Sequence record: PZ476263.1
Direction: 5' to 3' (one strand)
Source of the DNA: a phage
Length of the DNA stretch: 64,000 nt
Position 1 is the stretch's first letter, and each line of letters begins with the position of its first letter. The notes under the pieces are model-generated. The model was not told the DNA's origin and did no database searches. It worked only from the letters and a program-made list of their open reading frames with translations. Both the position numbers and the translations under genes were made by a program. Positions 28,020 to 62,946 of this stretch are shown here, one piece after another.

Positions 28020-28048
28020 ATATTACTACTTCAAAACTTCAATTGCAA
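28020..28048 (-). promoter_or_regulatory. sigma70-like promoter
   Basis: Minus strand TTGCAA-N17-TAATAT upstream of the SSB-like gene. Confidence 0.4.
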
Positions 28049-28055
28049 CTACTTT

Positions 28056-28442
28056 TTACAAATAAACACGTTTAGTTTTAGAATCCACACCCTCAAAAAG
28101 TTCATTGATAATGTTTAAATCTTTGATAAAGCGAACAGTAAAGTCCTCATCTTTCAATGCTCGTAAACGGTCACGTTTTACAATCTTAGGTTCACCGTCA
28201 TCATAATTCAAAACATCAGTTAGATCAAAGAGAGTGATCGTAATTTTTGCGTAAGTTTCCTTATCTATTTTTTGGTTCTTGTCAATCCCATAGACTGACG
28301 CAATTTCAAGTTCGTCTGTATCTTTACTGTATACAATGTTGGTATTCATTGCATACTCTACATCAGTCCATTTTGTGATATTACGAGTTGCAGATTTAAT
28401 TTTCCAACTATCGTCTAATTCGTATTTATCAAAAACGCTCAT
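28056..28442 (-). CDS. hypothetical protein
   Basis: 128-aa acidic protein. Confidence 0.4.
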   Translation of the reverse strand: MSVFDKYELDDSWKIKSATRNITKWTDVEYAMNTNIVYSKDTDELEIASVYGIDKNQKIDKETYAKITITLFDLTDVLNYDDGEPKIVKRDRLRALKDEDFTVRFIKDLNIINELFEGVDSKTKRVYL

Positions 28443-28473
28443 CTTTATCTCCTTCGTTTAGGTTGAGGTAATC

Positions 28474-28502
28474 ATCTTACCCCAACCTTTATTACCTGTC
28501 AA
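28474..28502 (-). promoter_or_regulatory. sigma70-like promoter
   Basis: TTGACA-N17-TAAGAT on minus strand. Confidence 0.45.
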
Positions 28503-28942
28503 TACTCTGCGCGAGGTTTAACTACACCAGCTTTAGAAATTGGAAGCTCATCTGCATCTTTACCACGAAGACTATTGATCCATTCCCGTTCTGTCATGAC
28601 ATATTCGTGGTTGTCCTCTTTTGCTAGGCGAACATAAATTTCATAAGCTGACTCTCCGACGGGTCCCATATTACCTCGATCACCTTGTGGACCAGATAAA
28701 ATCTTTTCTACCTGTGCTTTTTCAACGACAGGTTTTGATTTGTATAGCGACCAAATCAGCAGGCCAGTCCAAATAGCCAGACCCGCAAAAGGGTAAATCG
28801 ACAATACAAGTCCCAACAAAGAAAGGATTAAAATAATGTGTTTGTTAAGATGGTCCCGCTTATAAGCGATAACTACAGGAACAAACCAGATCGCCAATAC
28901 AATTAAAGACAGAAAAAGAAAAATTACTATTGCAACATCCAT
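28499..28942 (-). CDS. membrane protein, superinfection-immunity-like N-terminus fused to fibre-like motif
   Basis: Two to three hydrophobic helices ('PVVIAYKRDHLNKHIILILSLLGLV...GLLIWSLY'), then 'GPQGDRGNMGPVGESAYEIYVRLAKED...EREWINSLRG'. Confidence 0.4.
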   Translation of the reverse strand: MDVAIVIFLFLSLIVLAIWFVPVVIAYKRDHLNKHIILILSLLGLVLSIYPFAGLAIWTGLLIWSLYKSKPVVEKAQVEKILSGPQGDRGNMGPVGESAYEIYVRLAKEDNHEYVMTEREWINSLRGKDADELPISKAGVVKPRAEY

Positions 28943-28957
28943 AATGACCTCCTCAGA

Positions 28958-29161
28958 TTAATCGCTTAAAGTAACAGTATCGAAAAACACATCCCGCATC
29001 CACTCTTCAGCGGGACGAATGTAATAACCAGTTTTACCTAGAGATTGGTAATATTTTAAAATCTCTTTGGCAATATCTTTAGTCAAACCTGCCGCTACAA
29101 TACAGCCACCAGGTCCAGAGACTACATGTGTTTTGTATTTATCATTTTTGTTTTTGCTCAT
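28958..29161 (-). CDS. hypothetical protein
   Basis: 67-aa ORF. Confidence 0.3.
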   Translation of the reverse strand: MSKNKNDKYKTHVVSGPGGCIVAAGLTKDIAKEILKYYQSLGKTGYYIRPAEEWMRDVFFDTVTLSD

Positions 29162-29450
29162 TATTCTCTCCCTCTAATTTTTGTTTAAGTTTTTCTGCAT
29201 CCCAACTGTATGAGCTTGGAAGCCCCATTTTAACGTCACTATCTGTAAATGTACATAAAACACCTTTTGCGTCCTGACCCCGTTTAATTATAGAACTATT
29301 ATTATAGTTCGGTTGACTTTTACAAAATTTGTGCAGACTAATAATTTCACTTGGGGTTAAGGATGGTAATTTAGAATAAGAATCTGGTTTTTCATCTTTT
29401 AAATCACAACCTGCAAGAAGAAAAATAAAAGCAACGATTAATTTTTTCAA
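29142..29450 (-). CDS. putative lipoprotein
   Basis: Signal peptide with lipobox (MKKLIVAFIFLLAGC), TTG start with SD GGAGGA. Confidence 0.4.
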   Translation of the reverse strand: MKKLIVAFIFLLAGCDLKDEKPDSYSKLPSLTPSEIISLHKFCKSQPNYNNSSIIKRGQDAKGVLCTFTDSDVKMGLPSSYSWDAEKLKQKLEGENNEQKQK

Positions 29451-29451
29451 T

Positions 29452-29601
29452 TCACGATCCTCCCCAATACTTAAACAATTCTACACATGCGATTGTTGAC
29501 AGTATGAACCATATGGCACTTACAACATTTACATACAGGAATCTACAACCTGCCATAGAAACCATTATAAAGAGGCAGACAAAAGTTTTATAATCAATCA
29601 T
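29452..29601 (-). CDS. small hydrophobic protein (49 aa), not in ORF track
   Basis: ATG overlaps upstream stop (ATGA); product MIDYKTFVCLFIMVSMAGCRF... has two hydrophobic segments. Confidence 0.25.
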   Translation of the reverse strand: MIDYKTFVCLFIMVSMAGCRFLYVNVVSAIWFILSTIACVELFKYWGGS

Positions 29602-30002
29602 TTCTTACTCTCCTTTTTTGATTTTTCGTCTGCATCTACCTGATCTTCCGCCAGACTAATTATCTGATAAACTGTTTCAGGGTTTTGAAGAAACTCTGTA
29701 TATTTCTTGATCCGAACTACGAGTTTTGAACGAACTTTTCTTTCTCTTTCTACTTGCTTGAAGTAATGACCCTTCTGAGTATAAGTCCACGCATAGTAAA
29801 CTGTTTTTGCACGATGGCGGGTTGATTTTAATTTCTCCGCCAGCTCCGTATACGGGTCATTATCTGTGGGACCAAAAAGAAAAATTTGTGCAAAATTCTC
29901 TTTCATAATTTGAGATTCTTCAGGTGTCAGTCGTGGACACTCTTCGGAACCGTACTTAGGACCTTTTACCATTGGTTTTTTAGGATAAACTTTACTATTC
30001 AT
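29598..30002 (-). CDS. hypothetical protein
   Basis: 134-aa basic protein. Confidence 0.4.
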   Translation of the reverse strand: MNSKVYPKKPMVKGPKYGSEECPRLTPEESQIMKENFAQIFLFGPTDNDPYTELAEKLKSTRHRAKTVYYAWTYTQKGHYFKQVERERKVRSKLVVRIKKYTEFLQNPETVYQIISLAEDQVDADEKSKKESKK

Positions 30003-30077
30003 ATTAATACCTCACTCCCGTTATGTTACTTTTACTCCGATGTAAGAGGGGTATTATAACCCCTCTCGATTTATTTA

Positions 30078-30707
30078 TCAATCACAACTTGAAGAACTTG
30101 AACCGCTATCATAAGAGCTACTGTCATAAGAGCTGGATGAACTCTCATAAGATGATGAAGAAGAACTTGAAGAACAAGATCGACTAGGTTCATCGCTCGC
30201 CATAACAGCGGCATACGTTCCAATACCTCCTAAAACACCTGCTGTTAATGGTACGTCATTGTTGCTGTTGACTTGAGTTGTTCCAGATCGAGATGTCGAA
30301 TTATGGGCCTCTTTAATAAATTTACGTTTAGCCTTTGGCGGCAGTTTCTTACCTTGTGCATAAACAGGAAGGTCAACTTCTTTCAATTTCTCATCTAAAG
30401 GTTTAGCCTTTTTAGGTGGAACTTTTTCAAGCTTAGAAACTTTAACAGTTTTCTTGTCGATGTTAACTCCAACGACGACTTCATTTTCTTCCAGATCGGT
30501 TTCAAATTTTTGAATCTTCGGCTTAGTGAAACGAACACTTTCAGACTTAACATTTAAACCAACAGCTTCAACATATTCTTTTACCTTTTGGGGAGCCTGA
30601 ACATTGTTCACATACTTCCGAGAATTAATATACTCATCAACTTTTGAAGTTTCGATCTTGACAGGTACAAAAATAGATTTCACCCAAGAAAATAATTTTT
30701 TAAACAT
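30078..30707 (-). CDS. hypothetical protein with Ser-rich C-terminal tail
   Basis: 209 aa, Lys-rich middle, one hydrophobic segment, C-terminal 'SCSSSSSSSSYESSSSSYDSSSYDSGSSSSSCD' from repetitive DNA. Confidence 0.4.
   Translation of the reverse strand: MFKKLFSWVKSIFVPVKIETSKVDEYINSRKYVNNVQAPQKVKEYVEAVGLNVKSESVRFTKPKIQKFETDLEENEVVVGVNIDKKTVKVSKLEKVPPKKAKPLDEKLKEVDLPVYAQGKKLPPKAKRKFIKEAHNSTSRSGTTQVNSNNDVPLTAGVLGGIGTYAAVMASDEPSRSCSSSSSSSSYESSSSSYDSSSYDSGSSSSSCD
30080..30180 (-). repeat. simple-sequence (Ser-codon) repeat inside CDS
   Basis: Reiterated short units (tcataagagct and gaagaacttgaa variants) on the plus strand. Confidence 0.4.
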
Positions 30708-30739
30708 AACTTCCTCCTTTCAATTTTTAATTCGAGGCT

Positions 30740-30768
30740 ATTGTAATTCAATAGCCTTTGCTTGTCAA
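30740..30768 (-). promoter_or_regulatory. sigma70-like promoter with -10 inside an inverted repeat
   Basis: TTGACA-N17-TACAAT; 9-bp inverted repeat AGGCTATTG/CAATAGCCT spans the -10. Confidence 0.5.
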
Positions 30769-30774
30769 TAAAAT

Positions 30775-31714: not shown

Positions 31715-31715
31715 G

Positions 31716-31913
31716 TTATTTTCCTTTCTTTGTAATGATGAGTTTAAATTTACCATACACTGAATCAGAAAACAAGACATCAACTAAAGAATTATCGTCC
31801 GCTTTAACTTTAAGAAAGTTGCGATTGCCACATTGATTAATGACTTCATACTCCTTACCTTCACTAAAAAGACCCCAACCCTTAAAATTACTTTTCTCAC
31901 AGAGTAGCTTCAT
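31716..31913 (-). CDS. hypothetical protein
   Basis: 65-aa ORF. Confidence 0.3.
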   Translation of the reverse strand: MKLLCEKSNFKGWGLFSEGKEYEVINQCGNRNFLKVKADDNSLVDVLFSDSVYGKFKLIITKKGK

Positions 31914-31945
31914 ATTTTATCCCCTTCTCGTCATTTGATGTAGAG

Positions 31946-31975
31946 ATTATAGTTCATAAAGTATGGACCTGTCAA
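31946..31975 (-). promoter_or_regulatory. sigma70-like promoter
   Basis: TTGACA-N18-TATAAT on minus strand. Confidence 0.45.
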
Positions 31976-32458: not shown

Positions 32459-32734
32459 TTATTCTTTTTCGAAAGGGCCGCCAAGGGACACTTTAAGATC
32501 AAAAGATTTTGATAAAATAAAATCAGCGTCCTCATTAAAGAAGTCAAACTGAATAAAACATTCGTTTAGGCTCACACAAACCCCAACCGATTTTACACCG
32601 TTGACATCTTTCATCAGATATTCATATTCAGGTAATAATTTTACATCATAAAAATAAAAGACTCCAGAATCAATTTCGTCCCAACCATCCCAAGATTTAA
32701 CAAATTTACCTTCAATACCTTTTAAGTCGCTCAT
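32459..32734 (-). CDS. hypothetical protein
   Basis: 91-aa acidic protein. Confidence 0.35.
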   Translation of the reverse strand: MSDLKGIEGKFVKSWDGWDEIDSGVFYFYDVKLLPEYEYLMKDVNGVKSVGVCVSLNECFIQFDFFNEDADFILSKSFDLKVSLGGPFEKE

Positions 32735-32763: not shown

Positions 32764-32792
32764 ATTATAGGCTTCCTTGCCCAATGTGTCAA
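32764..32792 (-). promoter_or_regulatory. sigma70-like promoter
   Basis: TTGACA-N17-TATAAT (consensus hexamers). Confidence 0.5.
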
Positions 32793-34836: not shown

Positions 34837-34865
34837 ATACTACTTACTTTTCTTTTTGTTGTCAA
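34837..34865 (-). promoter_or_regulatory. sigma70-like promoter
   Basis: TTGACA-N17-TAGTAT upstream of the 670-aa gene. Confidence 0.45.
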
Positions 34866-36765: not shown

Positions 36766-36793
36766 ATCATACCAGAATGAATCTGTGTGTCAA
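36766..36793 (-). promoter_or_regulatory. sigma70-like promoter
   Basis: TTGACA-N16-TATGAT on minus strand. Confidence 0.4.
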
Positions 36794-36852: not shown

Positions 36853-37755
36853 TTAGTGACAATCTCCCCAGCTGTATCCACACAAGTATTCCCCTGTGAT
36901 ATGCACTGGTGATTTCATCATCTTAGCTGCTTGTTCGACACAACGAACAACCATCTCTCCTACAGGGCAGTATGTAATAGTGAAGATACCATTTTCATCT
37001 GGATCACACTTAAACTTACCTTCCTTGACACAATGGCCTTCGAGGACCATCTTCTTAGCAAGACATGCCTCAACAAAAGCTTTTGCATCAGCTTCGTTAT
37101 CAAACTTCCATACCTTTTTGAACTTCTCCGGCACTTCAAGCTGGTACTCGTCATGGTAATAAATTGTACGACGTACACCTTGATCATACCAACCTTTTTT
37201 AACCAGCTGCCAATGCAACAGGATACCTACCAAGTCAAACATGGCAGCACCACCGTTCTGTTGGAAAGCGTTAAGCAATGAGTGTTTGGATCGGGTATAG
37301 ATCTTACGACCATCAAGACCATAAATGAATCGTTTACCGTTGGCTTCCCAAAACTTCTCAAGTGCTTCTTTACGACCTTTCAAACCTAAGTTGCTATCCC
37401 AAAATGCATCGATTACTGCTTGTGCTTTCTCCAATGAAATTCCAAGCATGGATGCAATCTTAGCTGCTTGAGCACCGTACATAATTCCATAGGTGATCCC
37501 CTTTCCTTCCCCACGAGATACTTTCTTACCCGCTGCCTTGGTATATGCTTCTGCGTTTCGACTATGAGCATCACCACTTTCCATAATTCGGAGGTAAGCA
37601 CCACCATCGAATTCATAACTTCCCCATGCAGCGACCATACCCTCTAAGTTAGAACCGTCTATACCTACCTGATACTTACCCTCGGGTACAGTGAAAAGGT
37701 CACGCATTTCTTTACCTAGAAGAACCTTAGGATCAGGCTTCGGCACGTTAGCACA
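36853..37755 (-). CDS. DNA polymerase (family A), 3' exon
   Basis: Contains motif A-like 'VGIDGSNLEGM', motif B-like 'ITYGIMYGAQAAKIA' and motif C 'YHDEYQLEV'. Frame stays open upstream of the GTG ('..ANVPKP', cf. PNLxNIP). Confidence 0.75.
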   Translation of the reverse strand, partial: CANVPKPDPKVLLGKEMRDLFTVPEGKYQVGIDGSNLEGMVAAWGSYEFDGGAYLRIMESGDAHSRNAEAYTKAAGKKVSRGEGKGITYGIMYGAQAAKIASMLGISLEKAQAVIDAFWDSNLGLKGRKEALEKFWEANGKRFIYGLDGRKIYTRSKHSLLNAFQQNGGAAMFDLVGILLHWQLVKKGWYDQGVRRTIYYHDEYQLEVPEKFKKVWKFDNEADAKAFVEACLAKKMVLEGHCVKEGKFKCDPDENGIFTITYCPVGEMVVRCVEQAAKMMKSPVHITGEYLCGYSWGDCH

Positions 37756-38959
37756 ATATGTTCGTTAAAGGTCGCAACTCTTTAACCGGGATCGTATACA
37801 CCTGAAGAAATATCTCTTCACACTTTCGAGTACGATTCCTGTTTCTTTTGCTACGTCACAGAAATCTTTCCCATCAAGTATCATTTTTGTTATCTCTAGT
37901 TCCAACTCTTCTTTAGTTTTGTTTCTTAACTTACTGACCCCAAAAGTTTTATCTTCGGCAAATTTACCGATAAAAAATCTAACTGTCGGTTTCTCTAAGT
38001 TTAGGATCTCACAAATCTTTAAAAGAGTCGCACCTTTCCACCATAAAGATCTTGCTTCTTCTGCAAGATGTTTCTTTTCTTCCACTTCAGAAACACATTT
38101 CCCCATGTCGAAAGTTTTTAAGTATCTTGCTGCAAAGTGCCTTTCTTGTCCAAGGTCCAGAGAGATTTTTGCATACGAATCACCTGCCAGATATCTTTTA
38201 TGGATGTGCAGATACATCTCTCCATAGTTATCAAAGCCGGATTGTTTTGCTCTATTATCTCTTTTTGCCATTGAACTTCTTTCAGATGCGATAGTTTTTA
38301 TGGACTCACCAAAAGAGTTTCCAATTGCATCTGGACTAGGACTCACCGCTGAAAAAGTATTATTAGTCATGTTATAGAATTCTGTATTGTTGGCTGCATC
38401 ATTCTCTAAAAGAACTTTTTCTTCGATTTCACGAAGGAGATCTCTTTTGTCTACAACTTCCAACACCTCAGCTACAAATCTATGACCACTTTTTAAATCC
38501 TTTTTCATATCTGGATTGGAAGAGGACCCAAGATAAGGTTTTCCACTCTTAATCGAGATTATTGTGGGGATTCCATCCACATCTATCACTTTGCATTCAC
38601 TTTTACTTCCGATATATTTGTTCGGGTATTCTTCTTTATCGATGTTTTTCAAGAGATAAACAATGTTCATGTATACGTCCTCCGCTGTATCTTTCAACAC
38701 AGTTCAGACTATATCTTTGACACACTAAAGGATAGCTGAACCAATCTACCCCTAATGTATCACAAACCACTTCGATTGTCTACGCTTACAATCTACGCCT
38801 TCCGGCTAGTCGTTGAACCTTCTACCTGTCTGGTAGCTTGGCTGCTGATTGCCCAATCCTTTAACTTTTTAAACCTTCGCTTTGTATTCCTACTCGCAGT
38901 GGTATAAAGGCTCTAAGGGGTTCCCAGCAATTCAATTTGTTTTATACTGAGGCAGCTTT
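37756..38959 (-). mobile_element. group I intron (with homing endonuclease ORF) in the DNA polymerase gene
   Basis: Minus-strand RNA carries the conserved elements in order: P-like AAUUGCUGGGAAC (38920-38931), Q-like AAUCAGCAGCC (38840-38850), R-like GUUCAACGACUAG (38806-38818), S-like AAGAUAUAGUC (38707-38717). Boundaries approximate. Confidence 0.7.
37765..38670 (-). CDS. GIY-YIG family homing endonuclease (intron-encoded)
   Basis: Starts 'MNIVYLLKNIDKEEYPNKYIGSK...' (IVY...YIGS, cf. I-TevI GIY...YVGS); SD GGAGGA; ORF lies 3' of the intron core. Confidence 0.6.
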   Translation of the reverse strand: MNIVYLLKNIDKEEYPNKYIGSKSECKVIDVDGIPTIISIKSGKPYLGSSSNPDMKKDLKSGHRFVAEVLEVVDKRDLLREIEEKVLLENDAANNTEFYNMTNNTFSAVSPSPDAIGNSFGESIKTIASERSSMAKRDNRAKQSGFDNYGEMYLHIHKRYLAGDSYAKISLDLGQERHFAARYLKTFDMGKCVSEVEEKKHLAEEARSLWWKGATLLKICEILNLEKPTVRFFIGKFAEDKTFGVSKLRNKTKEELELEITKMILDGKDFCDVAKETGIVLESVKRYFFRCIRSRLKSCDL

Positions 38960-40694
38960 AGTTTACCACAGTGTGTTTACGACGGCCTGTATTCGTTATT
39001 CCAGTATAACGTGCAGGTAATTTACCGTCCACCGCAAGTCGAGGATGGTTTAACCAACCTGTATCTACTTTATCCTCTTTCAAAGGATCAAGAACACTTC
39101 GACGGTTACGAAGAGATAGCCATTTTACAATCTGCTTTGCCATATCACCATCGACTCGCTCAAGGTTAGGACAAAGGCCCTGCTGATCCTTAAGCTGCGG
39201 TGATGTTGGTAATGCTCTTGCCTTCTTCCTGAAGAACTTATACATCTTCTCTTTATCTTGCCACTGCTTACCACTGATACCTAAACTTTTCAGAATCAGA
39301 TCGCGATATTCAGTCTGGTCAAGATCATCAATGTATTGACGAACAATGATATCGACTTCGTTATCGGGACGTTGTTTCTTAAACTGGTCCTTCGTCGCAT
39401 CTTTGGTTCGCCACAATGTTGGGACCCAACCCGCATCACGAATAAGGAATTTTTTAACGTCATCCTGATTACCAATACGCATCGGAATCATAATATCCGG
39501 CATCTTTTGATCTTTGATATCCATCAATGCACGGGCCATGTCTTCCGGTGGCAAAGGTACAAGATTTTCCTTTTTCACATTTTGAGAACGAATAAATTCA
39601 GCCATTTTGGATTCATCTTCTACACCATGCTCTACACAATACTTAATTGCAGCAGATGTGAGTGAACCATCGCCCTTAAACGGCTTACTTGGAGCGCCTT
39701 TAAATTCAAGAGCTTCCCAATTCACATTGTAACCTAACTTCTCTAACCATTTCCAGCCCGTACCAGAAAGAGATCCATCTCCTTTAAACGGCTTAGACGG
39801 GAAAGTAGGCTGTGCTGACTTGGACATCTCTTTCTTCGGCAGCTTTGGTTCAACCTCTTCTTCAATTTCTTTCATCATCGTATCAATACGATCACGCAAA
39901 GCTAAACCTTTCTCCACGTCGAAAGTAACACCCTGAATTTCTTGCTCAACCATCAAATAGTCGGTAAGCATACCTCGACGCAAGGCATTCTTCCAATTGA
40001 TGAGCTTCATCTTCTTCGGATCTTTGTCCGATTCATCTTTGTACATGAAACGTTTATCATCCGGCATAGAGTCACATGAAATTTCTTTCATGAGGGCATC
40101 CCATACCATTTCGTTGATGATTACGTCTTCAATAATACGATCACAATATTTCCACAAAGGGAGTCCACGCCAATCTTCGATTGCTACCTTCTGGTTTGCT
40201 ACTCGCATACCCCAAGCTTCAAGTCCATGAGGGCCTACAGGCTTCATTTTACCTGTAACTGGGTTCTTTACCATCTCGGGACAACCGCGCGGCAGAGGGC
40301 GATCTGGATACAGTGTACGGGACATTGAAAGGGTATCGAAGATGTTAACTTGTTTACCATTGATAGTCCCCATGCAACCAGGGTCTGCAAACATATCGTA
40401 TGTTGTTCCAAACATCTTTTTAAACAGCTGTAAGTCATAGCCGAAGATATTATGGATAGCAACAGCTTTTGGTTCAGTCACAAACCACTCATTAAGTTCT
40501 TCCAACTTACGGATCTTAAAGTTCTTACCTTTGGATTGAATAAACTTAACCGCTTGCTCGTAGCCTTCGCGGTTCGGATCGATAAAAATATTCCAATTGT
40601 CCTTTTTGTACTCTTTAAAAAGAACACAGTGAACAAGATCAACTTCTGTCAACAGGCCGTTAGCCTCTGCATCTCCAATAAACAAACCTTTCAT
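38958..40694 (-). CDS. DNA polymerase (family A), 5' exon with 3'-5' exonuclease domain
   Basis: N-terminus 'MKGLFIGDAEANGLL' matches the T7-type Exo I motif; ends '...YTGITNTGRR' (cf. TGR..PNL.NIP) before running into intron sequence. Confidence 0.75.
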   Translation of the reverse strand: MKGLFIGDAEANGLLTEVDLVHCVLFKEYKKDNWNIFIDPNREGYEQAVKFIQSKGKNFKIRKLEELNEWFVTEPKAVAIHNIFGYDLQLFKKMFGTTYDMFADPGCMGTINGKQVNIFDTLSMSRTLYPDRPLPRGCPEMVKNPVTGKMKPVGPHGLEAWGMRVANQKVAIEDWRGLPLWKYCDRIIEDVIINEMVWDALMKEISCDSMPDDKRFMYKDESDKDPKKMKLINWKNALRRGMLTDYLMVEQEIQGVTFDVEKGLALRDRIDTMMKEIEEEVEPKLPKKEMSKSAQPTFPSKPFKGDGSLSGTGWKWLEKLGYNVNWEALEFKGAPSKPFKGDGSLTSAAIKYCVEHGVEDESKMAEFIRSQNVKKENLVPLPPEDMARALMDIKDQKMPDIMIPMRIGNQDDVKKFLIRDAGWVPTLWRTKDATKDQFKKQRPDNEVDIIVRQYIDDLDQTEYRDLILKSLGISGKQWQDKEKMYKFFRKKARALPTSPQLKDQQGLCPNLERVDGDMAKQIVKWLSLRNRRSVLDPLKEDKVDTGWLNHPRLAVDGKLPARYTGITNTGRRKHTVVN

Positions 40695-45740: not shown

Positions 45741-46021
45741 TTTACCAACCCCAATTCATATGCCGAGTATAAATCATTTCCTTCGTACCCGTCAACAATA
45801 ATTTTCACATTTTTATCGCGACGCTCATCAACAACCATTCGAGATCCTGCGCCGGATTTAACAAGGTAGGTGTCCTTATTAACCCTTACCGTTTGTGTTC
45901 TTCTTGCAGAAACAATCTCAACCTGTGTATTTTTAGGAACAAATTTAACAATCTCCACCATAGTACCTTCGGTCCCCATTTCCATAAGGTCATACTTAAT
46001 AGCTTTCATTAATGTAGTCAT
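45737..46021 (-). CDS. hypothetical protein
   Basis: 94-aa ORF. Confidence 0.4.
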   Translation of the reverse strand: MTTLMKAIKYDLMEMGTEGTMVEIVKFVPKNTQVEIVSARRTQTVRVNKDTYLVKSGAGSRMVVDERRDKNVKIIVDGYEGNDLYSAYELGLVK

Positions 46022-46601: not shown

Positions 46602-46630
46602 AGTATAAGGATATTTTAGGTGGCTGTCAA
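46602..46630 (-). promoter_or_regulatory. sigma70-like promoter
   Basis: TTGACA-N17-TATACT on minus strand. Confidence 0.45.
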
Positions 46631-50067: not shown

Positions 50068-50149
50068 TTGTTATCTCCTGTTCTTAAGTATGTGTGTACT
50101 CTATCATAAGTTTTGAAAGGTGCAAGTGTTAATTACACCTTTCTTAAAA

Positions 50150-52205: not shown

Positions 52206-52226
52206 CTTTCCTCCAATTGAGGACCC

Positions 52227-52255
52227 AGTTTATCACTGGGTCGCTCTCTTGTCAA
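52227..52255 (-). promoter_or_regulatory. sigma70-like promoter with -10 inside an inverted repeat
   Basis: TTGACA-N17-TAAACT; 8-bp inverted repeat GACCCAGT/ACTGGGTC spans the -10. Confidence 0.45.
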
Positions 52256-53548: not shown

Positions 53549-53581
53549 AATAAAAATGCCCTCACTGTTTCCAATAAGGGC

Positions 53582-53610
53582 ATATTAATATAATTTTAAC
53601 TACCTGTCAA
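53582..53610 (-). promoter_or_regulatory. sigma70-like promoter
   Basis: TTGACA-N17-TAATAT; a 7-bp hairpin (ATGCCCT...AGGGCAT) follows in the leader. Confidence 0.45.
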
Positions 53611-55574: not shown

Positions 55575-56117
55575 TTATTTACGTTTAAATTTGTTATGGC
55601 CTTTTCCTTTCTTCAATTTCGATTGTTTCCAATCTGAAGTATTTGAATTTCCAATTTCAATCGGGCTTGCAAACCAACTTGTAAGATCTTTCTTAGTGAT
55701 ATGCTTCCCAATAGTAGGACATGCACCAAGTAATACAGCTTTAGATTTAATTTCTACAACAGCTTCATTAACTTCATCTTTAAAAGAATCCATAAATTTA
55801 CCAGTTGTCTCAATATCGTAATTACTGTATGAATGAACATAAAGCATAGTTTTAAGCTCATGACGGTTACTTACAACAACTTTAAAACCAGTGTAAGTCC
55901 TCAATCTTGAAAAGATTTCCTGAATGTCATCTGCATCTACAACCGAATCTTTGTCAAGAGACTGAATCAATAAGTATTTAAAATCGAATTTGTAGTCAGA
56001 TTTTGGATTCTTGATTGTTTCAACATACTCTTCAAGACGTTCCCACTCAGTAGGATCATTAATAAGGTCTTCAATACGAAAGATAAAGGGATGCTTGCGA
56101 TTTTGTTGAACTGTCAT
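55575..56117 (-). CDS. hypothetical protein with basic C-terminus
   Basis: 180-aa ORF. Confidence 0.4.
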   Translation of the reverse strand: MTVQQNRKHPFIFRIEDLINDPTEWERLEEYVETIKNPKSDYKFDFKYLLIQSLDKDSVVDADDIQEIFSRLRTYTGFKVVVSNRHELKTMLYVHSYSNYDIETTGKFMDSFKDEVNEAVVEIKSKAVLLGACPTIGKHITKKDLTSWFASPIEIGNSNTSDWKQSKLKKGKGHNKFKRK

Positions 56118-56147
56118 TTTATTATCCTCTTTTGTTTAAGTAGGGTC

Positions 56148-56175
56148 ATTATACATGACCCTTATTGTGTGTCAA
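56148..56175 (-). promoter_or_regulatory. sigma70-like promoter with -10 inside an inverted repeat
   Basis: TTGACA-N16-TATAAT; 7-bp inverted repeat GGGTCAT/ATGACCC spans the -10. Confidence 0.5.
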
Positions 56176-57034: not shown

Positions 57035-57491
57035 CTATAATTTTCATCCAACTTGGTTTAGAGAATCCCATCGCAAGAGTATCAATCTCTTGCTTAGCCT
57101 TTTGTTCTATTACATTTTGCAATACGATTTCGTTTGCCTCTGGTAAACTAGAATACGCTTCTCTGATTACCCTGTCAAACTTTTCCTTCATCTTTTTAAC
57201 TTCAACCTTAATTTCTACTTCGTCCATTGCATCTTTACAAACACAACAATGACCCTTAAAGTTTAATGTTGACCTGTCTTGTATTGGGAGTGCCACTCTC
57301 CCACAATAAGCACATACGGGAGTACCATAATCACCGATCATCACTGTTTTTGTGGGACGCAAACCAGTTTTAGTAGGGTTCCAGTCAGAAACCCAACCAT
57401 CTTTTCCATAAAGAGTGGAAAAGAAAGGGTATGCTCTTTCATCTACATGATCTTCATCTTTATTTTTCGTCTTTCCTAAGAATTTTATCAT
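57024..57491 (-). CDS. hypothetical Cys-rich (Zn-ribbon-like) protein
   Basis: 'CAYCGR...CCVCKD'; start set at the ATG with SD GAGGA, since the track start is a TTG inside the promoter. Confidence 0.4.
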   Translation of the reverse strand: MIKFLGKTKNKDEDHVDERAYPFFSTLYGKDGWVSDWNPTKTGLRPTKTVMIGDYGTPVCAYCGRVALPIQDRSTLNFKGHCCVCKDAMDEVEIKVEVKKMKEKFDRVIREAYSSLPEANEIVLQNVIEQKAKQEIDTLAMGFSKPSWMKIIDED

Positions 57492-57520
57492 CTTCGTATC
57501 CTCGTCGTTTTGATGATTCA

Positions 57521-57549
57521 AATTTACGAGAACTTGAGGGAGAAGTCAA
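57521..57549 (-). promoter_or_regulatory. sigma70-like promoter, first of the leftward early unit
   Basis: TTGACT-N17-TAAATT on minus strand, in the divergent intergenic region. Confidence 0.4.
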
Positions 57550-57612
57550 TACTTGATTTTCATTTATTTTGTGATATTCTTCTCTCAACTTAAACGAGAA
57601 GGAGAGTAATAG

Positions 57613-58143
57613 ATGAAAAAAGATAAAGAGCTTGCAATTGCAATCAGTCTTGCAGCACATCACCACGTTGATCAAACAGATAAAGGAGGTAACGTATACA
57701 TCCTTCACCCTTTGGAAGTTATGAATACTCTAGCAAGTCGTGGTGATTATCATCTTATGGCTGCTGGTGTTCTTCACGACATTCTGGAGGATTGCCCTGT
57801 TACTGAACAAGATTTATTGGACGCAGGGATTAGTATAAAGACAGTAAGAACAGTGAAGAAAGTTACAAAGGTTAAGGGTCAGAAACCTCGGGACTATCTC
57901 TTAGGTATCTTGTATGACATTAACGCTTCAAAAGTTAAGTTGGCAGATCTTAAGCATAACTTGGATCTTCTACGTGTTCGTGAAATCGACGAGAAAGCAG
58001 TAAAAAGAATTAAAAAATATGTTGACATGTATACCGTAATAGAGCAATCTATTGCCTGGCAACAAAAGAACTTTGAAGATTCGGATTCTTACTATAATGC
58101 AAGAGATGAGTATCTGGAGGAGTTAATCAAAATACTGAAATAA
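57613..58143 (+). CDS. HD-domain protein of the RelA/SpoT hydrolase type (putative small alarmone hydrolase)
   Basis: 'LAAHHHVDQTDKGGNVYILHPLEV...AAGVLHDILEDCPV' matches the (p)ppGpp-hydrolase HD signature. Confidence 0.55.
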   Translation: MKKDKELAIAISLAAHHHVDQTDKGGNVYILHPLEVMNTLASRGDYHLMAAGVLHDILEDCPVTEQDLLDAGISIKTVRTVKKVTKVKGQKPRDYLLGILYDINASKVKLADLKHNLDLLRVREIDEKAVKRIKKYVDMYTVIEQSIAWQQKNFEDSDSYYNARDEYLEELIKILK

Positions 58144-58159: not shown

Positions 58160-58188
58160 TTGACACGATAAACAAAACGCTCCATAAT
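58160..58188 (+). promoter_or_regulatory. sigma70-like promoter
   Basis: TTGACA-N17-CATAAT upstream of the AAA+ gene. Confidence 0.5.
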
Positions 58189-58220: not shown

Positions 58221-59450
58221 ATGCAAGCAACTTATCAACGTATGGACCAGAGCATGTTCAAAAAACGTATCAGCATTCGTCATATGGAAGCGCTTATTCG
58301 CTTGGGTGCATCGATTGGTAAAACTGTGTTCTTTTATGGCGGCGCTGGTCTGGGTAAATCCGAGAAAGTTCGTCAGATCGCAGACGCAATGTTCCCAAAT
58401 CGCGTAGGTAATAACCTCTGTGATGTTCGTCTGTCCGATAAAGAACCACAAGACGTTGCAGGTATTCCGATCCCTGTTACCTTGATTGATGAGAAAACTG
58501 GTAAAGAAGTTACTCGTACCGTTTATGCTGTACCAAACTTCTGGCCTACCGATCCTGATTGGCAGGGTATTGTTTTCCTTGATGAACTGCCTAACGCCCC
58601 GCTGGGTACTCAGCACTCGGCATATCAGGTAATTCTGGATCACGTTGCAGGTGAGCATAAATTCCCTGAAGGCTGCGTGTTTGTAGGTGCGGGTAACCGT
58701 GATACCGATGGTGCAGGTACTACCACAATGCCAGGTCCATTGGTTAACCGTATGATCTTGGCAGAAATTGATTATAACTTGGATGTTTGGATTGAAGATT
58801 ATGCGATTCCTTATCGTTTACATCCGAACGTAATTGGTTTCCTCAAGCAATTCCCTGAACATTTTTACACAGGGGATGTTGAGAACCGAAGCACTCAGGT
58901 ATTCGCTTCGCCTCGCCAATGGAAAACTGTTTCAGATATCCTTTATAAATATGATCAAGGAACTATGTCTGAATTTATCGCAGAGGTGGCGATTGCAGGT
59001 ACAGTTGGCGAAGGTCTTGAAGTTCAAGTATTGGCTTATCATATGCGTACTAAAGAACTTCCGGCGATTGAAGACATTTTCAGCGGTAAAACTAAAGAGC
59101 ATAAGTTGGATCGTAGTAAAAACGACCTGGTTTATGTATTGGCACAGACTGGTCTTCGTAAGATGGAAGATGAAGTCATGGATAATGAGATTAAGGATGA
59201 AGATTTCCTGGAGCGTTCAGGTAACTTCTTAACCTTTATGTACAATAACTATTACGATAACAACAAGGATACTCTGATTGCGATGATCTTGGGTGTATTC
59301 CGTGGTCCAAATGACAAGCCGTCCATTTTGACTGTTAACCCTCGTCGTCAGAAGATGATCCCGATGATGCGTAAGACTTGTCCGACCATCTCAGCTGTTG
59401 TTATGGAGTACATGACTCGTTATGGTCAACTGATTAAAGATTTTGAATAA
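58221..59450 (+). CDS. AAA+ ATPase, MoxR/CobS-like
   Basis: Walker A 'GGAGLGKSE', Walker B 'IVFLDELPNA'; followed by a VWA-domain gene. Confidence 0.55.
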   Translation: MQATYQRMDQSMFKKRISIRHMEALIRLGASIGKTVFFYGGAGLGKSEKVRQIADAMFPNRVGNNLCDVRLSDKEPQDVAGIPIPVTLIDEKTGKEVTRTVYAVPNFWPTDPDWQGIVFLDELPNAPLGTQHSAYQVILDHVAGEHKFPEGCVFVGAGNRDTDGAGTTTMPGPLVNRMILAEIDYNLDVWIEDYAIPYRLHPNVIGFLKQFPEHFYTGDVENRSTQVFASPRQWKTVSDILYKYDQGTMSEFIAEVAIAGTVGEGLEVQVLAYHMRTKELPAIEDIFSGKTKEHKLDRSKNDLVYVLAQTGLRKMEDEVMDNEIKDEDFLERSGNFLTFMYNNYYDNNKDTLIAMILGVFRGPNDKPSILTVNPRRQKMIPMMRKTCPTISAVVMEYMTRYGQLIKDFE

Positions 59451-59455
59451 AATCG

Positions 59456-59484
59456 TTGACAACAAAATCTAACTGACTTATTAT
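59456..59484 (+). promoter_or_regulatory. sigma70-like promoter
   Basis: TTGACA-N17-TATTAT. Confidence 0.5.
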
Positions 59485-59496
59485 AGGGGCATCTCG

Positions 59497-59517
59497 AAAG
59501 GGGTGTCCCTTTTTAAT
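59497..59517 (+). terminator. terminator-like hairpin between promoter and start codon
   Basis: AAAGGG-GTGT-CCCTTT followed by TTT, located between the -10 and the SD of the VWA gene. Confidence 0.35.
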
Positions 59518-59532
59518 ACCGGAGGATATGTA

Positions 59533-61050
59533 ATGATTGACCAAAAAGAAAAAGATATGATTCAACAACAAGACTCAGAAGCTGTTCGTATTATCGAGGC
59601 AGCAAGCCTTCAGTTGATGCGATTTAAACCGTTTTACGGAGTCATGCTGTCATCCATGCCCGTTAAGAACGGTACTTCATGGTGCTCCACAATGGCAACT
59701 GATGGTCGTAACCTCTATTATCATCCAGAATTTATCGCAGGGATGACAGATGAGCGTAAACAGTTAGTTCTTTCACGCCTGAAAGCTTCTGTGAGCGATC
59801 CTCAGCGCCTTAAAGAACTTACCCTGTACATCGAGTCATTTTATCGTCGTAAGACCGCCAGAGAGGTCGCTCTTATCCTTGAGCACGAATGTGACCACGT
59901 AGTTTCTGATCACGCCAGTCGTGGGAAAGGTTTTAATCACGAGCTTTACAATATTGCTGCGGATCATCGTATCAATACAACGGCAGTCCTGATCCATCAA
60001 AAAGGTGATGCATTAGGTAAGGCTTGGTTCCCTCAGGGTGAAAAGACAGTATTTGATCCGTTGCAAGAGTTTGGTTTTATGCATTGGGCTTATTGTGATT
60101 TCAAATTCAAAGATATGTATACAGAGCAGATCTATGAAATTTTGAACAAAGAAGAAAATGAGAAAGATAAATCTGATGGGAAAGGAAATGGATCGGGTAA
60201 CGGTGGGCCGGATGGCGATCTGAAAGGTGTTGACCAACACACAGATGAAAACGGTGATCCTGATGATGGTAATAATGATGTTGAAGATGCATTAGGTATC
60301 GACAAGAAAAGCAAACCAAAGCAGACAGCCGAAGAGCGTCAATATAACGATGGTGTAATGCGTCGAGCTATTGAGAATGCTGTTCAGGCGGCGGGTTCTG
60401 GTGCGCCGGAAGATGCTCGTCTCTTTGTTGAAGCTGACGGTAAGCCAAAGATTAACTACCTTCGTTTGCTTCGTCGTACTATTGAGCGTTTATTTAAACA
60501 GGATGTGTCTTATCGTCGTTTATCTCGTCGTAGTCACTCTTTGACTCGTACATTGCGTGGTGCTGGTTATATTAGTTCTCGACAAACTGTTGGTTTACCT
60601 TCTCACAACAAGCAGAAGACTATTCGTGCGGGTGTTTTCTTTGATGTGTCGGGTTCTTTTAACGATGAACTTCTTAAGCCAACAATGCGAGAGATCAGGG
60701 GTCTTTGTAATCTTTATGATGAGTTTGAAGTTACAATGGCCTGTTGGTCAACTAAGGTTGGTAACATAGAAACTTACACCAAAAAGAATATTAAGGACAT
60801 GGCTAACTATAAGATTAAGACTACTTTTGGTACGGACGTATCTTGTGTCTTTGAAGAGCTAGATAAGATGGAAAATCCTATGGATCAGATCATTATCTAT
60901 ACGGATGGTTACTTCTCTGATGTTTCTCAAACAAAAGATTGGGCCAAAAAGTATGGTAAGAATGTTCTTTGGATCATCCTTGGTCGTGGAGGAAATTCTT
61001 TCAAACCTCCATTCGGCAACGCGATTGATTTTGATAAGTACGTTAAGTAA
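59533..61050 (+). CDS. VWA-domain protein with N-terminal HExxH motif
   Basis: ATG with SD GGAGGA. 'LEHECDHVV' (HExxH), acidic Gly/Asp-rich linker, MIDAS-like 'FFDVSGSF'. Confidence 0.55.
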   Translation: MIDQKEKDMIQQQDSEAVRIIEAASLQLMRFKPFYGVMLSSMPVKNGTSWCSTMATDGRNLYYHPEFIAGMTDERKQLVLSRLKASVSDPQRLKELTLYIESFYRRKTAREVALILEHECDHVVSDHASRGKGFNHELYNIAADHRINTTAVLIHQKGDALGKAWFPQGEKTVFDPLQEFGFMHWAYCDFKFKDMYTEQIYEILNKEENEKDKSDGKGNGSGNGGPDGDLKGVDQHTDENGDPDDGNNDVEDALGIDKKSKPKQTAEERQYNDGVMRRAIENAVQAAGSGAPEDARLFVEADGKPKINYLRLLRRTIERLFKQDVSYRRLSRRSHSLTRTLRGAGYISSRQTVGLPSHNKQKTIRAGVFFDVSGSFNDELLKPTMREIRGLCNLYDEFEVTMACWSTKVGNIETYTKKNIKDMANYKIKTTFGTDVSCVFEELDKMENPMDQIIIYTDGYFSDVSQTKDWAKKYGKNVLWIILGRGGNSFKPPFGNAIDFDKYVK

Positions 61051-61059
61051 GGAGGTATC

Positions 61060-61431: not shown

Positions 61432-61530
61432 CAACATTCTCTTTATGCCCGTTTAGGCATACAATACTATATTAGATAATAAAACCCCTCGCTACGCTCA
61501 CCATTCTGGCCCTGGGGTTTTATATATCTA

Positions 61531-61577
61531 TTAAAAAATTAACCACACTCACATCCGTTCGGTACTTAATTTTTTAA
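61531..61577. repeat. 12-bp perfect AT-rich inverted repeat
   Basis: TTAAAAAATTAA ... TTAATTTTTTAA flanking a 23-bp core, upstream of the promoter at 61595. Confidence 0.45.
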
Positions 61578-61594
61578 GTTTTCCCAAAATTGTG

Positions 61595-61623
61595 TTGACA
61601 CACAAACATACTGAAGATATAGT
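61595..61623 (+). promoter_or_regulatory. sigma70-like promoter
   Basis: TTGACA-N17-TATAGT. Confidence 0.5.
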
Positions 61624-61640
61624 GAGTTAAAGGAAAAGAT

Positions 61641-61775
61641 ATGAATGTTAATGATTTATATAGTAAACTATCCAAAAGGTTCTTTACTTTCTATGGATTG
61701 ATGTTGATTGGTTTAGTTATGTTCTTAGTTGGATCTGTAGGTAAGTTGATCTTAAAATTGTTGGAGGTAATATGA
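61641..61775 (+). CDS. small membrane protein (44 aa), not in ORF track
   Basis: ATG after SD AAAGGAAAAG; one hydrophobic helix; ATGA overlap with next ORF. Confidence 0.3.
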   Translation: MNVNDLYSKLSKRFFTFYGLMLIGLVMFLVGSVGKLILKLLEVI

Positions 61776-61891
61776 TCACAGTTACAAACATGAAGTGGTG
61801 GGCATTAGCTCAAGTGGCTAATGATCAAGATGGTGGTGATGGTAAACGTGCAGTGGCACAGATCTATGTGTATGGTAAAGGAGGTAACTGA
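61772..61891 (+). CDS. small protein (39 aa), not in ORF track
   Basis: SD GGAGGT; stop overlaps next ATG (TGATG). Confidence 0.25.
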   Translation: MITVTNMKWWALAQVANDQDGGDGKRAVAQIYVYGKGGN

Positions 61892-62262
61892 TGTTGGAAT
61901 TTATTAATAATCTTGATTGGTATTTAGTAGCTTTAGTGGTTGTATACCTTATTTGTGTACCTTTGGTGTTATTCAACTTTGTGGACCTACTGGCCCTAGA
62001 TGATAAATCTGAAACTGCCACTTTTGGTGATCATCTAATGGCGATAGTTTGTGTATTGTCTGCACCCTTGGCACTGCTGTGCTTCTATTTTGTGGCCTTT
62101 GCTTTCTATTTCCCAAAAAGCAAATATGGGAAAAAGTACATTGCATGGAAGATTGAACGAAAACTACGTCGTAAGAAGATTATTAGTCCACTTGATTGGG
62201 CAGTGACCAAACGCCGCATTAGCCGAAAGGAGAAGAGAGATGAAACAGATAACCAAGTTTAA
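61891..62262 (+). CDS. membrane protein
   Basis: 123 aa, two hydrophobic helices, basic C-terminus. Confidence 0.4.
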   Translation: MLEFINNLDWYLVALVVVYLICVPLVLFNFVDLLALDDKSETATFGDHLMAIVCVLSAPLALLCFYFVAFAFYFPKSKYGKKYIAWKIERKLRRKKIISPLDWAVTKRRISRKEKRDETDNQV

Positions 62263-62392
62263 GTGGAAGTTTTGGGAGTACACTCTGATCATTGCTGGTT
62301 GGTTATTTGGCTATGGTCATGAAGTGTATTACAATGTGAAACATAAGAGAAATATGGCTTACATTCGTCATGTCTTCCACAAAAGAGGTTAA
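62240..62392 (+). CDS. small membrane protein (50 aa), not in ORF track
   Basis: ATG inside the upstream gene's 3' end; one hydrophobic helix. Confidence 0.25.
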   Translation: MKQITKFKWKFWEYTLIIAGWLFGYGHEVYYNVKHKRNMAYIRHVFHKRG

Positions 62393-62393
62393 G

Positions 62394-62921
62394 ATGAAAA
62401 TTGAAAGATCAATGGTTGAGAAGATTACCATCATGGGTCTTAAGAATTACACACCTATCACGGTGATTGTTGAAAATGGAGAGACGGAAGAGCAAGCGAA
62501 CATTAAAATATCTTGCTTTGGTGAAACTTGGTCACACTATTGGGGCAGTATGGGGTCATCGATTGGGGACTTCTTTAATCGTTGCGATAACGATTATCTG
62601 ATCTCTAAGTTAACCAATATCCCTCAAAAAGAAGAGGACTTGTTCCTTGATTGGAAAGTTATGCGTGATATTGTGCTAAAGGCAAGACGTAGACGAGAAA
62701 TTTCAGAGACAGATGCAAGACAGGCTTATTACTACATTTTATTTTATAAACCTGATCGTCATGAATTTGGAAATGGGTTGCCAGACGACCTTCAGCCTAT
62801 TGAAGAGTTGAGAGAATACTGGTATATTGACTGGCCTATGCGAGATAACCCGAAGTACAACTACATTTATGGGATCATTGATGCAGTACGAATTGCATTG
62901 AATACTGAAAAAGGTTGTTGA
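62394..62921 (+). CDS. hypothetical protein
   Basis: Start at the ATG with SD AAGAGG; the track start at 62370 lacks an SD. Confidence 0.4.
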   Translation: MKIERSMVEKITIMGLKNYTPITVIVENGETEEQANIKISCFGETWSHYWGSMGSSIGDFFNRCDNDYLISKLTNIPQKEEDLFLDWKVMRDIVLKARRRREISETDARQAYYYILFYKPDRHEFGNGLPDDLQPIEELREYWYIDWPMRDNPKYNYIYGIIDAVRIALNTEKGC

Positions 62922-62946
62922 CAACACCACATGGGTGCAGTAAGAT
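62918..62946 (+). promoter_or_regulatory. sigma70-like promoter with -10 inside an inverted repeat
   Basis: TTGACA-N17-TAAGAT; ATGGGT ... ACCCAT flanks the -10. Confidence 0.45.

Follow-up and report, generated by a model that had tools for sequence, protein, structure and literature searches.

Which form of RNA polymerase (RNAP) reads the late genes of a phage whose early genes appear to be left to the host enzyme? The question was raised by positions 28,020-62,946 of a 64,000-nucleotide (nt) stretch of phage DNA in record PZ476263.1 (the whole stretch is hereafter called the window), where the original prediction had placed at least 16 sigma70-type promoters on the correct strand upstream of early gene starts, and from which it had proposed a host-RNAP early programme and a phage-factor-dependent late programme. 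We found that the window carries two classes of promoter-like sequence: i) full sigma70-type sites upstream of early and replication genes (class 1), and ii) a ten-base motif, TGnTAAAATA, upstream of tail and baseplate genes (class 2). Both motifs exist, are enriched, stand at consistent positions and are conserved in relatives; that they fire, which form of polymerase reads them and when, we infer from the sequence, with the early and late timing assigned from gene function only.

In a megablast search against phage genomes, the closest genomes were rV5-like Vequintavirinae myoviruses and no other group. The best matches were Escherichia phages A7_1, A5-4, A73, W70, UPEC06 and LTH01 (identity ~80% in the tail module and 82-88% in parts of the replication module), and the next group was Certrevirus (phiTE, CR9 and CB7-like phages, ~73-80% identity). 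On these matches the window phage is an rV5-like (Vequintavirinae) myovirus. Open reading frame (ORF) layout and GC skew divided the window into three blocks: virion and tail genes on the + strand (1-26.8 kb), early and replication genes on the - strand (26.8-57.5 kb), and, from 57.6 kb onwards, a further block of genes on the + strand.

Sigma70-type sites mark the early blocks

The rule behind the original prediction (a -35 hexamer with at most one mismatch, N16-18 and TAnnnT) fitted 79 sites across the window. With 100 dinucleotide shuffles as the chance level, the coding (-) strand at 26.8-58.2 kb carried 13 sigma70 matches of at least 11/12 (0.50 ± 0.73 in the shuffles) and 27 of at least 10/12 (6.4 expected), while the antisense strand of this block gave a chance-level count at 10/12 or better (4 vs. 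6.8). In the late module neither strand held a match of 11/12 or better, and the number at 10/12 or better was again that of chance (3 vs. 3.5). At a loose 9/12 threshold the counts were 61 vs. 54.9 shuffled (40-60 kb) and 23 vs. 21.8 (56-64 kb), with a modest excess at 20-40 kb (69 vs. 48.6).

Nineteen sites lay on the correct strand with the end of the -10 situated 18-51 nt (typically 30-35 nt) upstream of a start codon, which bears out the earlier count of at least 16. By the start of the -35, they are 28048, 28502, 30081, 30768, 31975, 32792, 34865, 36793, 45795, 46630, 50132, 52255, 53610, 56175 and 57549 on the - strand, and 58160, 59456, 61595 and 62918 on the + strand. Exact TTGACA was present at 14 of the 19. 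When aligned, the early sites shared an upstream-element (UP)-like A-rich tract (AAAAnGTTG) just 5' of the -35, such as the A tract with (T)GTTGAC in aaaaagtgTTGACA (36793), aaaattgtgTTGACA (61595) and aaaaaggttgTTGACA (62918), and a conserved start region, (C)ACATCAA, ~5-10 nt past the -10. Three sites moreover carried a near-identical leader, C(A/C)TCAAC(T/C)TAAACGA(A/G)AGGAG. A TG upstream of the -10 was missing from most class 1 sites.

Conservation followed the hexamers. Among the nine sites whose flanks could be aligned to A7_1 or LTH01, six kept them (56175, 52255, 46630, 36793, 58160 and 59456), and in these relatives spacers had diverged while hexamers survived, most clearly at 46630 and 59456; sites 30081 and 50132 showed no conservation in the same alignment. 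In the complete A7_1 genome there were 26 sites of at least 11/12, of which none fell in the ~39-kb late block and 23 belonged to the coding strand of early blocks, with five such copies in the replication block syntenic to that of the window, against 13 in the window. Enrichment, strand and position bias, the UP/-35/-10 anatomy, hexamer conservation and the failure to find a phage RNAP or sigma factor thus support a host-RNAP early programme well at the sequence level.

The claim that no sigma70-type site precedes the structural genes held for matches of at least 11/12 and met one exception: TTGACT N18 TATTGT (6278-6307), which lies 28 nt from the start at 6336, is conserved in phiTE and overlaps a copy of the late motif.

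A ten-base late motif is conserved across genera

Comparison of all late intergenic regions gave TGnTAAAATA as the conserved late core, a shared element that is longer and begins further 5' than TAAAATAC, the string first proposed as the late motif. The core occurred four times in the window, always on the + strand and never on the - strand; three copies are late intergenic and the fourth is at 32510. All three perfect + strand copies in the late module were intergenic, i.e. three in 876 nt of late intergenic + strand where 0.0115 were expected, and none of 2000 shuffles gave two or more. Motif enrichment on the stretch, which had been named as a check, came out in favour of both classes (13 stringent early sites vs. 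0.5; three late cores vs. 0.0115).

The first copy, TGGTAAAATA at 6307..6316 (+), stands 20 nt from the GTG at 6336, is identical in A7_1 and phiTE and has TTGCTT 17 bp upstream of TAAAAT. The second, TGTTAAAATA at 13255..13264 (+), stands 18 nt from the ATG at 13282 and 18 nt past a terminator at 13217-13236; in its orthologues (A7_1 20700 and phiTE L009:37237) only the N base was altered. The third, TGATAAAATA at 16800..16809 (+), stands 34 nt from the ATG at 16843, the start of a gene for a 494-aa baseplate-J-like protein, and 23 nt past a terminator at 16756-16776; copies with flanks were present in five IMG/VR contigs. The original prediction had drawn the boundaries of the motif wrongly and had missed the copy at 6307. 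Its placement of TAAAATAC 20-25 nt before 13282 and 16843 was right for the former (13258, 24 nt), while the string at 16803 lies 40 nt off.

A third instance, TTTAATAC at 5728 (5728-5735), was probably wrong as well. When the region is aligned with phiTE, the orthologous -10 falls at 5717, where a probable degenerate late -10, TGATAACAT (5717..5725, +), lies 23 nt from the ATG at 5749 and aligns with phiTE TGATAAAAT. We rejected TTTAATAC as a late element, since the same string recurs in the same GGAGGATA context in an early leader at 59512, which points to a ribosome-binding-site context and not to a late signal. The late motif, thought to rest on two or three instances, is nonetheless better supported than that, with three perfect copies and five positions conserved in phiTE.

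Several further candidates were set aside. A perfect TGATAAAATA at 32510-32519 (+) lies antisense inside the early gene 32459-32734 and was treated as chance, given that ~1.2 copies are expected per window and that the syntenic A7_1 position has no perfect copy; such a copy could give a late antisense RNA. The candidate at 9946 (TATGGAAAAT) was not conserved in phiTE, and that at 21998 (TGTTAAAATT), which overlaps the start codon at 21997, had no gene at a sensible distance. One-mismatch variants of TGnTAAAATA were uninformative, being scattered over both strands and all modules of the window and of A7_1; only perfect copies were specific.

Of the six perfect copies in the complete A7_1 genome, five (144042, 3078, 13746, 20700 and 24198) lay 18-34 nt before late genes. 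In phiTE, a phage of a different genus with ~50% GC, the 50-kb late-module segment carried five + strand copies at the same five orthologous positions and none on the other strand; over the 100 kb of phiTE examined there was a sixth, in a 50-kb early segment (L008:36356). Anchored comparison of the five copies with phiTE revealed no change at the nine specified bases (0/45), changes at the N base in two of five, and changes at 16% of the 20 nt upstream and 29% of the 20 nt downstream of the motif. The TG was invariant in 13/13 copies from three genomes, with G, T, A or C at the N base and TAAAAT as the hexamer. Copies with flanks were also found in several IMG/VR contigs of 142-153 kb. As for the -35 region, three of the five conserved late sites had a T-run alone and two had TTGCAA or TTGCTT at 17 bp, both conserved in phiTE.

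A variant, TGnTAATATA, stands ahead of the terminase gene in A7_1 (TGGTAATATA, L005:14782, i.e. A7_1 144782) and in phiTE (TGATAATATAC, L009:~15955), and also another upstream A7_1 gene (L005:12477, i.e. A7_1 142477). With these variants, which lie in parts of the genome outside the window, the late class probably has at least seven members per genome.

Both classes have published counterparts

Kropinski et al. 2013 predicted 33 sigma70-type promoters in rV5 (PMC3606486). From the upstream regions of late genes they also obtained by MEME a late motif, TggTAaAAtA, in eight copies (PMC3606486, Table S4C), including TGGTAAAATAC, TGGTAAAATAA and TGTTAAAATAG, and likened it to the T4 late consensus, although rV5 is without gp33, gp45 and gp55 homologues (PMC3606486). 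We found TGGTAAAATAA at 6307 of the window. The rV5 promoter P036 (TGGTAAAATAC) precedes a 496-aa baseplate protein (gene 36), likely the counterpart of the window gene at 16843 as judged by size and annotation only. The same 10-mer thus stands before virion genes in rV5 and in the window, often adjoining terminators, but the rV5 copies are looser, with TACAAT and TAGAAG variants. Furthermore, the rV5 paper took the middle base as a preferred G, whereas in our cross-genus comparison this base is free and the TG invariant, which is extended -10 anatomy. In three rV5 promoters with TGnTAAAAT (P036, P051 and P074, two from the late list and one from the sigma70 list), TTGAC(A/T) lies exactly 17 bp upstream (Table S4).

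For the early class, Buttimer et al. 2020 described AAAA(N3-4)TGTTGAC(N17-19)TATAAT in CB7, CR3, CR8 and CR9, concentrated in early regions of phages without an RNAP of their own (PMC7344957), and drew the same conclusion that host RNAP is used (PMC7344957). The Certrevirus promoter and that of the window share the UP-like A tract, (G)TTGAC and a TATAAT-like -10, and both are concentrated where small early genes form blocks and close to replication genes, with none at structural genes. The window phage is not a Certrevirus; it shares ~80% identity with Escherichia phages A7_1, A5-4 and LTH01, which are unclassified, and its CATCAA start region and shared leader are undescribed in the Certrevirus paper. 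Both promoter classes are published predictions for the subfamily and the finding is largely ordinary; the new increment consists of the cross-genus footprint (0/45 in the core), the free N and the rV5 -35 partners at 17 bp.

A proposed reading of the two classes by sigma70

The invariant TG, free base and TAAAAT of the late motif amount to the anatomy of an extended -10 promoter, in which TG at -15/-14 and one free base precede a hexamer with T-12, A-11 and T-7 and which the host holoenzyme could in principle read unaided, so that dependence on a phage factor is not established. From the proposal of a phage-factor late programme, the separate class of late promoters therefore survives, while factor dependence is unproven, there being extended -10 anatomy and no factor homologue among the scanned proteins. 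Since class 1 sites are mostly without TG, the two classes look complementary, in the manner of -35-dependent and TG-dependent promoters. Moreover TTGAC(A/T) or TTGCAA/TTGCTT at 17 bp would place TAAAAT in the sigma70 register.

Protein scans covered 80 window proteins (PHROGs and Pfam), all of them early and none from the late module, and 150 further ORFs of A7_1 (Pfam), each of up to 330 aa and located outside the early block that is syntenic with the window. No Pfam sigma, gp55, gp33, sliding clamp, AsiA, MotA, anti-sigma or RNAP-binding family was matched by the 80 window proteins or the 150 A7_1 ORFs, nor was there a sigma family among the best 25 of 46 and of 50 PHROG families for the window proteins. 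The only matches of this kind were weak ones to HTH_40 and T4_y05I_C (E ~1e-3).

We favour, with a probability of roughly 0.55, the reading in which sigma70, possibly remodelled, recognizes the late motif as an extended -10 class. The phage would then have no RNAP of its own, and both of its promoter classes would be most simply read by host sigma70 RNAP. Class 1, found ahead of the early and replication genes (28-63 kb), has the make-up of a full-strength promoter, with a UP-like tract, TTGACA, 16-18 bp and TAnnnT, usually ~30-35 nt before the start codon, and would be used by the host holoenzyme immediately after DNA entry; that the early genes are read by host RNAP appears well grounded. 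Class 2, found ahead of the tail and baseplate genes (1-26.8 kb), with a TG extended -10, TAAAAT and A, usually no -35 and 18-34 nt to the start, would depend only on contacts of sigma regions 2 and 3 and would restart transcription after each terminator. The early-to-late shift would come about through loss of UP/-35-dependent initiation or through competition, and not through a new sigma.

Phages with such a mechanism are known. T4 AsiA and gp39 of Thermus phage P23-45 block -35 recognition and spare extended -10 promoters (PMC3950348); in P23-45, where a small phage protein disables recognition of the -35, middle and late genes are driven by promoters of the extended -10 class (PMC3950348), and gp39 has anti-termination activity as well (PMC3351154), a property of relevance to a late module rich in terminators. 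Like that class, the window motif has TG one base before a near-consensus -10 and usually no -35. It differs in its preference for TAAAATA and in an invariance far above that of a generic extended -10, and the scanned proteins included no homologue of AsiA or gp39.

Several points weigh against sigma70 as the reader: i) the nine invariant bases, including the A at hexamer position 3 and the trailing A, exceed the known demands of sigma70, which hints at a narrower specificity factor; ii) the sigma70 optimum TGnTATAAT never occurred at the late sites, which always had TAAAATA; iii) if the host holoenzyme suffices unaided, the sequence offers no explanation for the delay of the late genes; iv) no candidate protein for remodelling of sigma region 4 or the beta-flap was found among the 80 window and 150 A7_1 proteins scanned, where Pfam would be blind to fast-evolving small RNAP binders and very remote homologues are possible; and v) we found no transcriptome for Vequintavirinae or Vequintavirus phages in the literature.

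The first two points lead to the alternative that survives best, although we think it unlikely: an unrecognised phage specificity factor, either a minimal sigma of the gp55 type or a protein that replaces sigma, for which TAAAATA would be a single -10-type element. Comparison cases are T4 gp55 with TATAAATA and phiEco32 gp36 with -10-only promoters. Invariance over ten bases across paralogues and genera (0/45), far above the variability of the class 1 -10, would suit such a factor, as would a hexamer that is always TAAAAT and never TATAAT, the lack of a -35 at most copies and the likeness to the T4 late consensus remarked on by the rV5 authors; most early proteins are without known function, which leaves room for an undetected factor. 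T4 late promoters and the window motif indeed share a single AT-rich -10-type element, without a -35, shortly before late genes. The T4 element, read by gp55, gp33 and gp45 with no TG requirement, differs in sequence from TGnTAAAATA, which matches TATAAATA at only 5-6 of 8 positions, and none of the three occurrences of TATAAATA in the window was upstream of a late gene. No sigma70-family, gp55, gp33 or gp45 homologue was found in the scanned window and A7_1 proteins or reported for rV5. The invariant TG, absent from T4 late promoters, is a hallmark of contact with sigma70 region 3, and a consensus -35 stands exactly 17 bp upstream of three rV5 copies. Nor did the late sites match the MotA box of T4 middle promoters, (a/t)(a/t)(a/t)TGCTT(t/c)A with its centre at -30: TGCTTTT is present at the 6307 site alone, where it lies at the wrong distance (15 nt) from the hexamer, and a MotA-box reading of TTGCTTTTG there was ruled out by this spacing and by the other sites lacking the box. 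Searched as a string in the literature, the late motif returned unrelated primer matches only.

Less likely again is the view that the late sites are real sigma70 extended -10 promoters without any temporal switch, i.e. constitutive internal promoters placed after terminators, the "late" pattern being due to weaker promoters and rising template copies. The motif is readable by sigma70 on sequence grounds, every copy lies just past a terminator or at an operon boundary, the scanned proteins contained no switch factor, and the rV5 authors raised the same possibility. Yet the two classes are cleanly segregated by gene module in A7_1, phiTE and the window, which is unexpected if both are always used; for rV5, whose positions are known from Table S4 only, three TGnTAAAAT promoters also carry a -35. 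Large lytic phages that use host RNAP moreover generally reprogram it (cf. PMC3950348).

It is improbable that the motif acts in RNA, as a leader, translation or processing signal of late genes expressed by read-through. A distance of 18-20 nt from the start codon at four of the five sites would put it inside any read-through mRNA, and junctions with a hairpin and a ribosome-binding site but no promoter show that read-through occurs in the late module. The fixed TG, free base and TAAAAT are nevertheless the anatomy of DNA recognition, with no associated pairing partner or RNA structure; the motif is strand-specific, has -35 partners at 17 bp in rV5 and follows strong terminators, where re-initiation is needed. 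Taken jointly, an RNA-level role and chance leave little room as explanations of the late motif. That the early sites are chance matches in AT-rich DNA can be dismissed for the 19 as a set, in spite of near-shuffled counts at 9/12 and strong matches deep inside genes (34429, 36611, 41169 and 44966), by the 13 vs. 0.5 at 11/12 on the coding strand only, the fixed distance to the start codon, the shared flanking motifs and the phylogenetic footprints in relatives, though the single weak sites 28048, 50132 and 57553 could be due to chance.

Individual predicted promoters of the early blocks

The leftmost early promoter, which gave the original prediction its start coordinate (28020, the -10 end), is weak: TTGCAA N17 TAATAT at 28020..28048 (-, 8/12), upstream of the gene starting at 27977. 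Next on the - strand come TTGACA N17 TAAGAT at 28474..28502, 32 nt from the ATG at 28442 and with the leader CCTCAACCTAAACGAAGGAG, and TTGATA N17 TATAAT at 30053..30081, 51 nt from the ATG at 30002, whose -35 but not -10 was kept in A7_1 and LTH01 and whose -10 lies in an inverted repeat. TTGACA N17 TACAAT at 30740..30768 (-) is 33 nt from the ATG at 30707. Two 12/12 sites follow on the same strand: TTGACA N18 TATAAT at 31946..31975, 33 nt from the ATG at 31913 and downstream of a terminator (32015-31994), and TTGACA N17 TATAAT at 32764..32792, 30 nt from the ATG at 32734. The gene for a 670-aa product (ATG 34805) has TTGACA N17 TAGTAT at 34837..34865 (-), 32 nt away. TTGACA N16 TATGAT at 36766..36793 (-), 41 nt from the ATG at 36725, is identical in A7_1, carries a TG and has a terminator ahead of it (36837-36816, -).

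Further along the - strand, TTGACG N18 TATACT at 45766..45795 lies within the upstream gene, 26 nt from the ATG at 45740. TTGACA N17 TATACT at 46602..46630, 34 nt from the ATG at 46568, follows a terminator (46657-46636), and both of its hexamers were kept in A7_1 and LTH01 over a diverged spacer. The least certain site of the set, not conserved in A7_1, is TTAACA N18 TATGAT at 50103..50132, 36 nt from the ATG at 50067. TTGACA N17 TAAACT at 52227..52255, with a TG and with its -10 in an inverted repeat, is 22 nt from the ATG at 52205 and conserved in A7_1 and LTH01. TTGACA N17 TAATAT at 53582..53610 is 34 nt from the ATG at 53548 and is followed by a T-run hairpin (53583-53556); a third 12/12 site, TTGACA N16 TATAAT at 56148..56175, is 31 nt from the ATG at 56117, and its TTGACA was kept in A7_1 and LTH01.

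Early transcription would diverge from a control region at 57492-57612 that has outward promoters on both sides. The leftward one, TTGACT N17 TAAATT at 57521..57549 (-), lies 30 nt from the ATG at 57491 with CATCAAAACGACGAGG in its leader. The rightward one is a candidate, TTGATT N16 TATTCT at 57553..57580 (+, 8/12), supported by the shared family leader CTCAACTTAAACGAGAAGGAG and situated upstream of the + strand gene 57613-58143. This gene encodes 176 aa behind a good ribosome-binding site, and its presence places the divergent region at 57492-57612 and not at ~58.1 kb. Both outward promoters are below the family average in strength, yet have the family leader.

On the + strand, TTGACA N17 CATAAT at 58160..58188 is 33 nt from the ATG at 58221 of a gene which by synteny and size is the orthologue of the phiTE MoxR ATPase; its -35 was kept as TTGACT in A7_1 and LTH01. 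TTGACA N17 TATTAT at 59456..59484 is 49 nt from the ATG at 59533, with hexamers kept and spacer diverged, and a terminator hairpin (59485-59510, +) starts right after its -10. TTGACA N17 TATAGT at 61595..61623 and TTGACA N17 TAAGAT at 62918..62946 are 18 nt and 31 nt from the ATGs at 61641 and 62977, respectively.

Several side observations concern these sites. Packing is very compact: in five cases (28499-28502, 30078-30081, 52252-52255, 56172-56175 and 62918-62921) the -35 of the next promoter (TTGACA or TTGATA) contains the TGA stop of the gene upstream. Three promoters have their -10 hexamer within a G+C-rich inverted repeat, either in its loop or in its 3' arm, e.g. GGGTCATgtataATGACCC (56142-56162, 52222-52242 and 30045-30066). 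The repeats differ in sequence, which makes a common operator unlikely, and they would fold as hairpins only in read-through RNA from upstream genes. Terminator-like hairpins with a T-run come right after the -10 of P59456 (59485-59510, +) and P53610 (53583-53556, -); since the predicted start of each lies inside the 5' arm, the hairpin could stop read-through while the promoter's own transcripts escape. The hairpin at 53556 also covers the likely Shine-Dalgarno sequence (GAGGG). Seven strong sigma70 matches (10-11/12) on the coding strand are internal to early genes and have neither UP-like nor CATCAA flanks (- strand, -35 starts 34429, 36611, 41169, 44966, 46103, 56662 and 57178), and these may be internal promoters or an excess tolerated by selection.

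Elsewhere in the replication block, a group I catalytic intron (38685-39052, -; Rfam RF00028, 73.8 bits, E 7e-17) lies in the gene for a family-A DNA polymerase, which is split into the ORFs 38958-40694, 37765-38670 and 36853-37707. Relatives likewise have split polymerase genes and HNH endonucleases.

Terminators and junctions of the late module

Three of the five conserved late sites lie 18-23 nt past an intrinsic terminator whose T-run occupies the -35 position, and such sites look like points of re-initiation. The terminators on the + strand are at 5663..5684, closing the 4075-5658 gene; at 13217..13236, with its T-run filling the -35 region of the 13255 motif; and at 16756..16776, upstream of the 16800 motif. 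A bidirectional terminator at 26779-26802 marks the convergence of the late (+) and early (-) blocks. A strong terminator-like hairpin at 10729..10758 (+), directly before an 810-aa gene (10781), has no promoter motif after it. It belongs to a set of late junctions in which a hairpin is followed by a ribosome-binding site without a promoter (1730-1771, 10728-10780, 21145-21186 and 25504-25541), and the late module would accordingly rely on terminator read-through too.

The 5' region (7958-8007) of a 471-aa structural gene at 8008, whose product is annotated as "structural protein" in A7_1 and phiTE, has no late motif. It contains a hairpin, TTGGCACTTCCGTGCTAG, followed by GTCAATAATCGT, and is near-invariant in A7_1 and phiTE. 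We rejected a reading of its TGGCAC-N-GTGCT as a sigma54 -24/-12 promoter, since the distance between GG and GC falls short by one base and the sequence is the hairpin.

Implications for rV5-like phages

For annotation, the analysis gives a corrected late motif and a map of transcription units, in which ~19 early and 3-4 late promoters are placed together with the intervening terminators. What has been called the T4-like late promoter of rV5-like phages, a group of widely used therapeutic and biocontrol coliphages, is recast as an extended -10 class.

The biological value is modest and lies in the question raised, namely whether a phage protein switches off -35-dependent initiation and, if so, which one. 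Because the invariance of the motif goes beyond the known needs of sigma70, we entertain tentatively, at less than even odds, that TGnTAAAATA marks a promoter-specificity switch uncharacterised in Escherichia coli phages outside the T4 group. Such a switch might take the form of (a) a small remodeller of sigma70 region 4, the beta-flap or the alpha subunit's C-terminal domain, or (b) a new minimal factor that needs the full 10-mer. Form (a), if true, would be a functional analogue of AsiA and gp39, possibly anti-terminating, which would shut the UP/-35 early promoters and leave the -10-only late ones.

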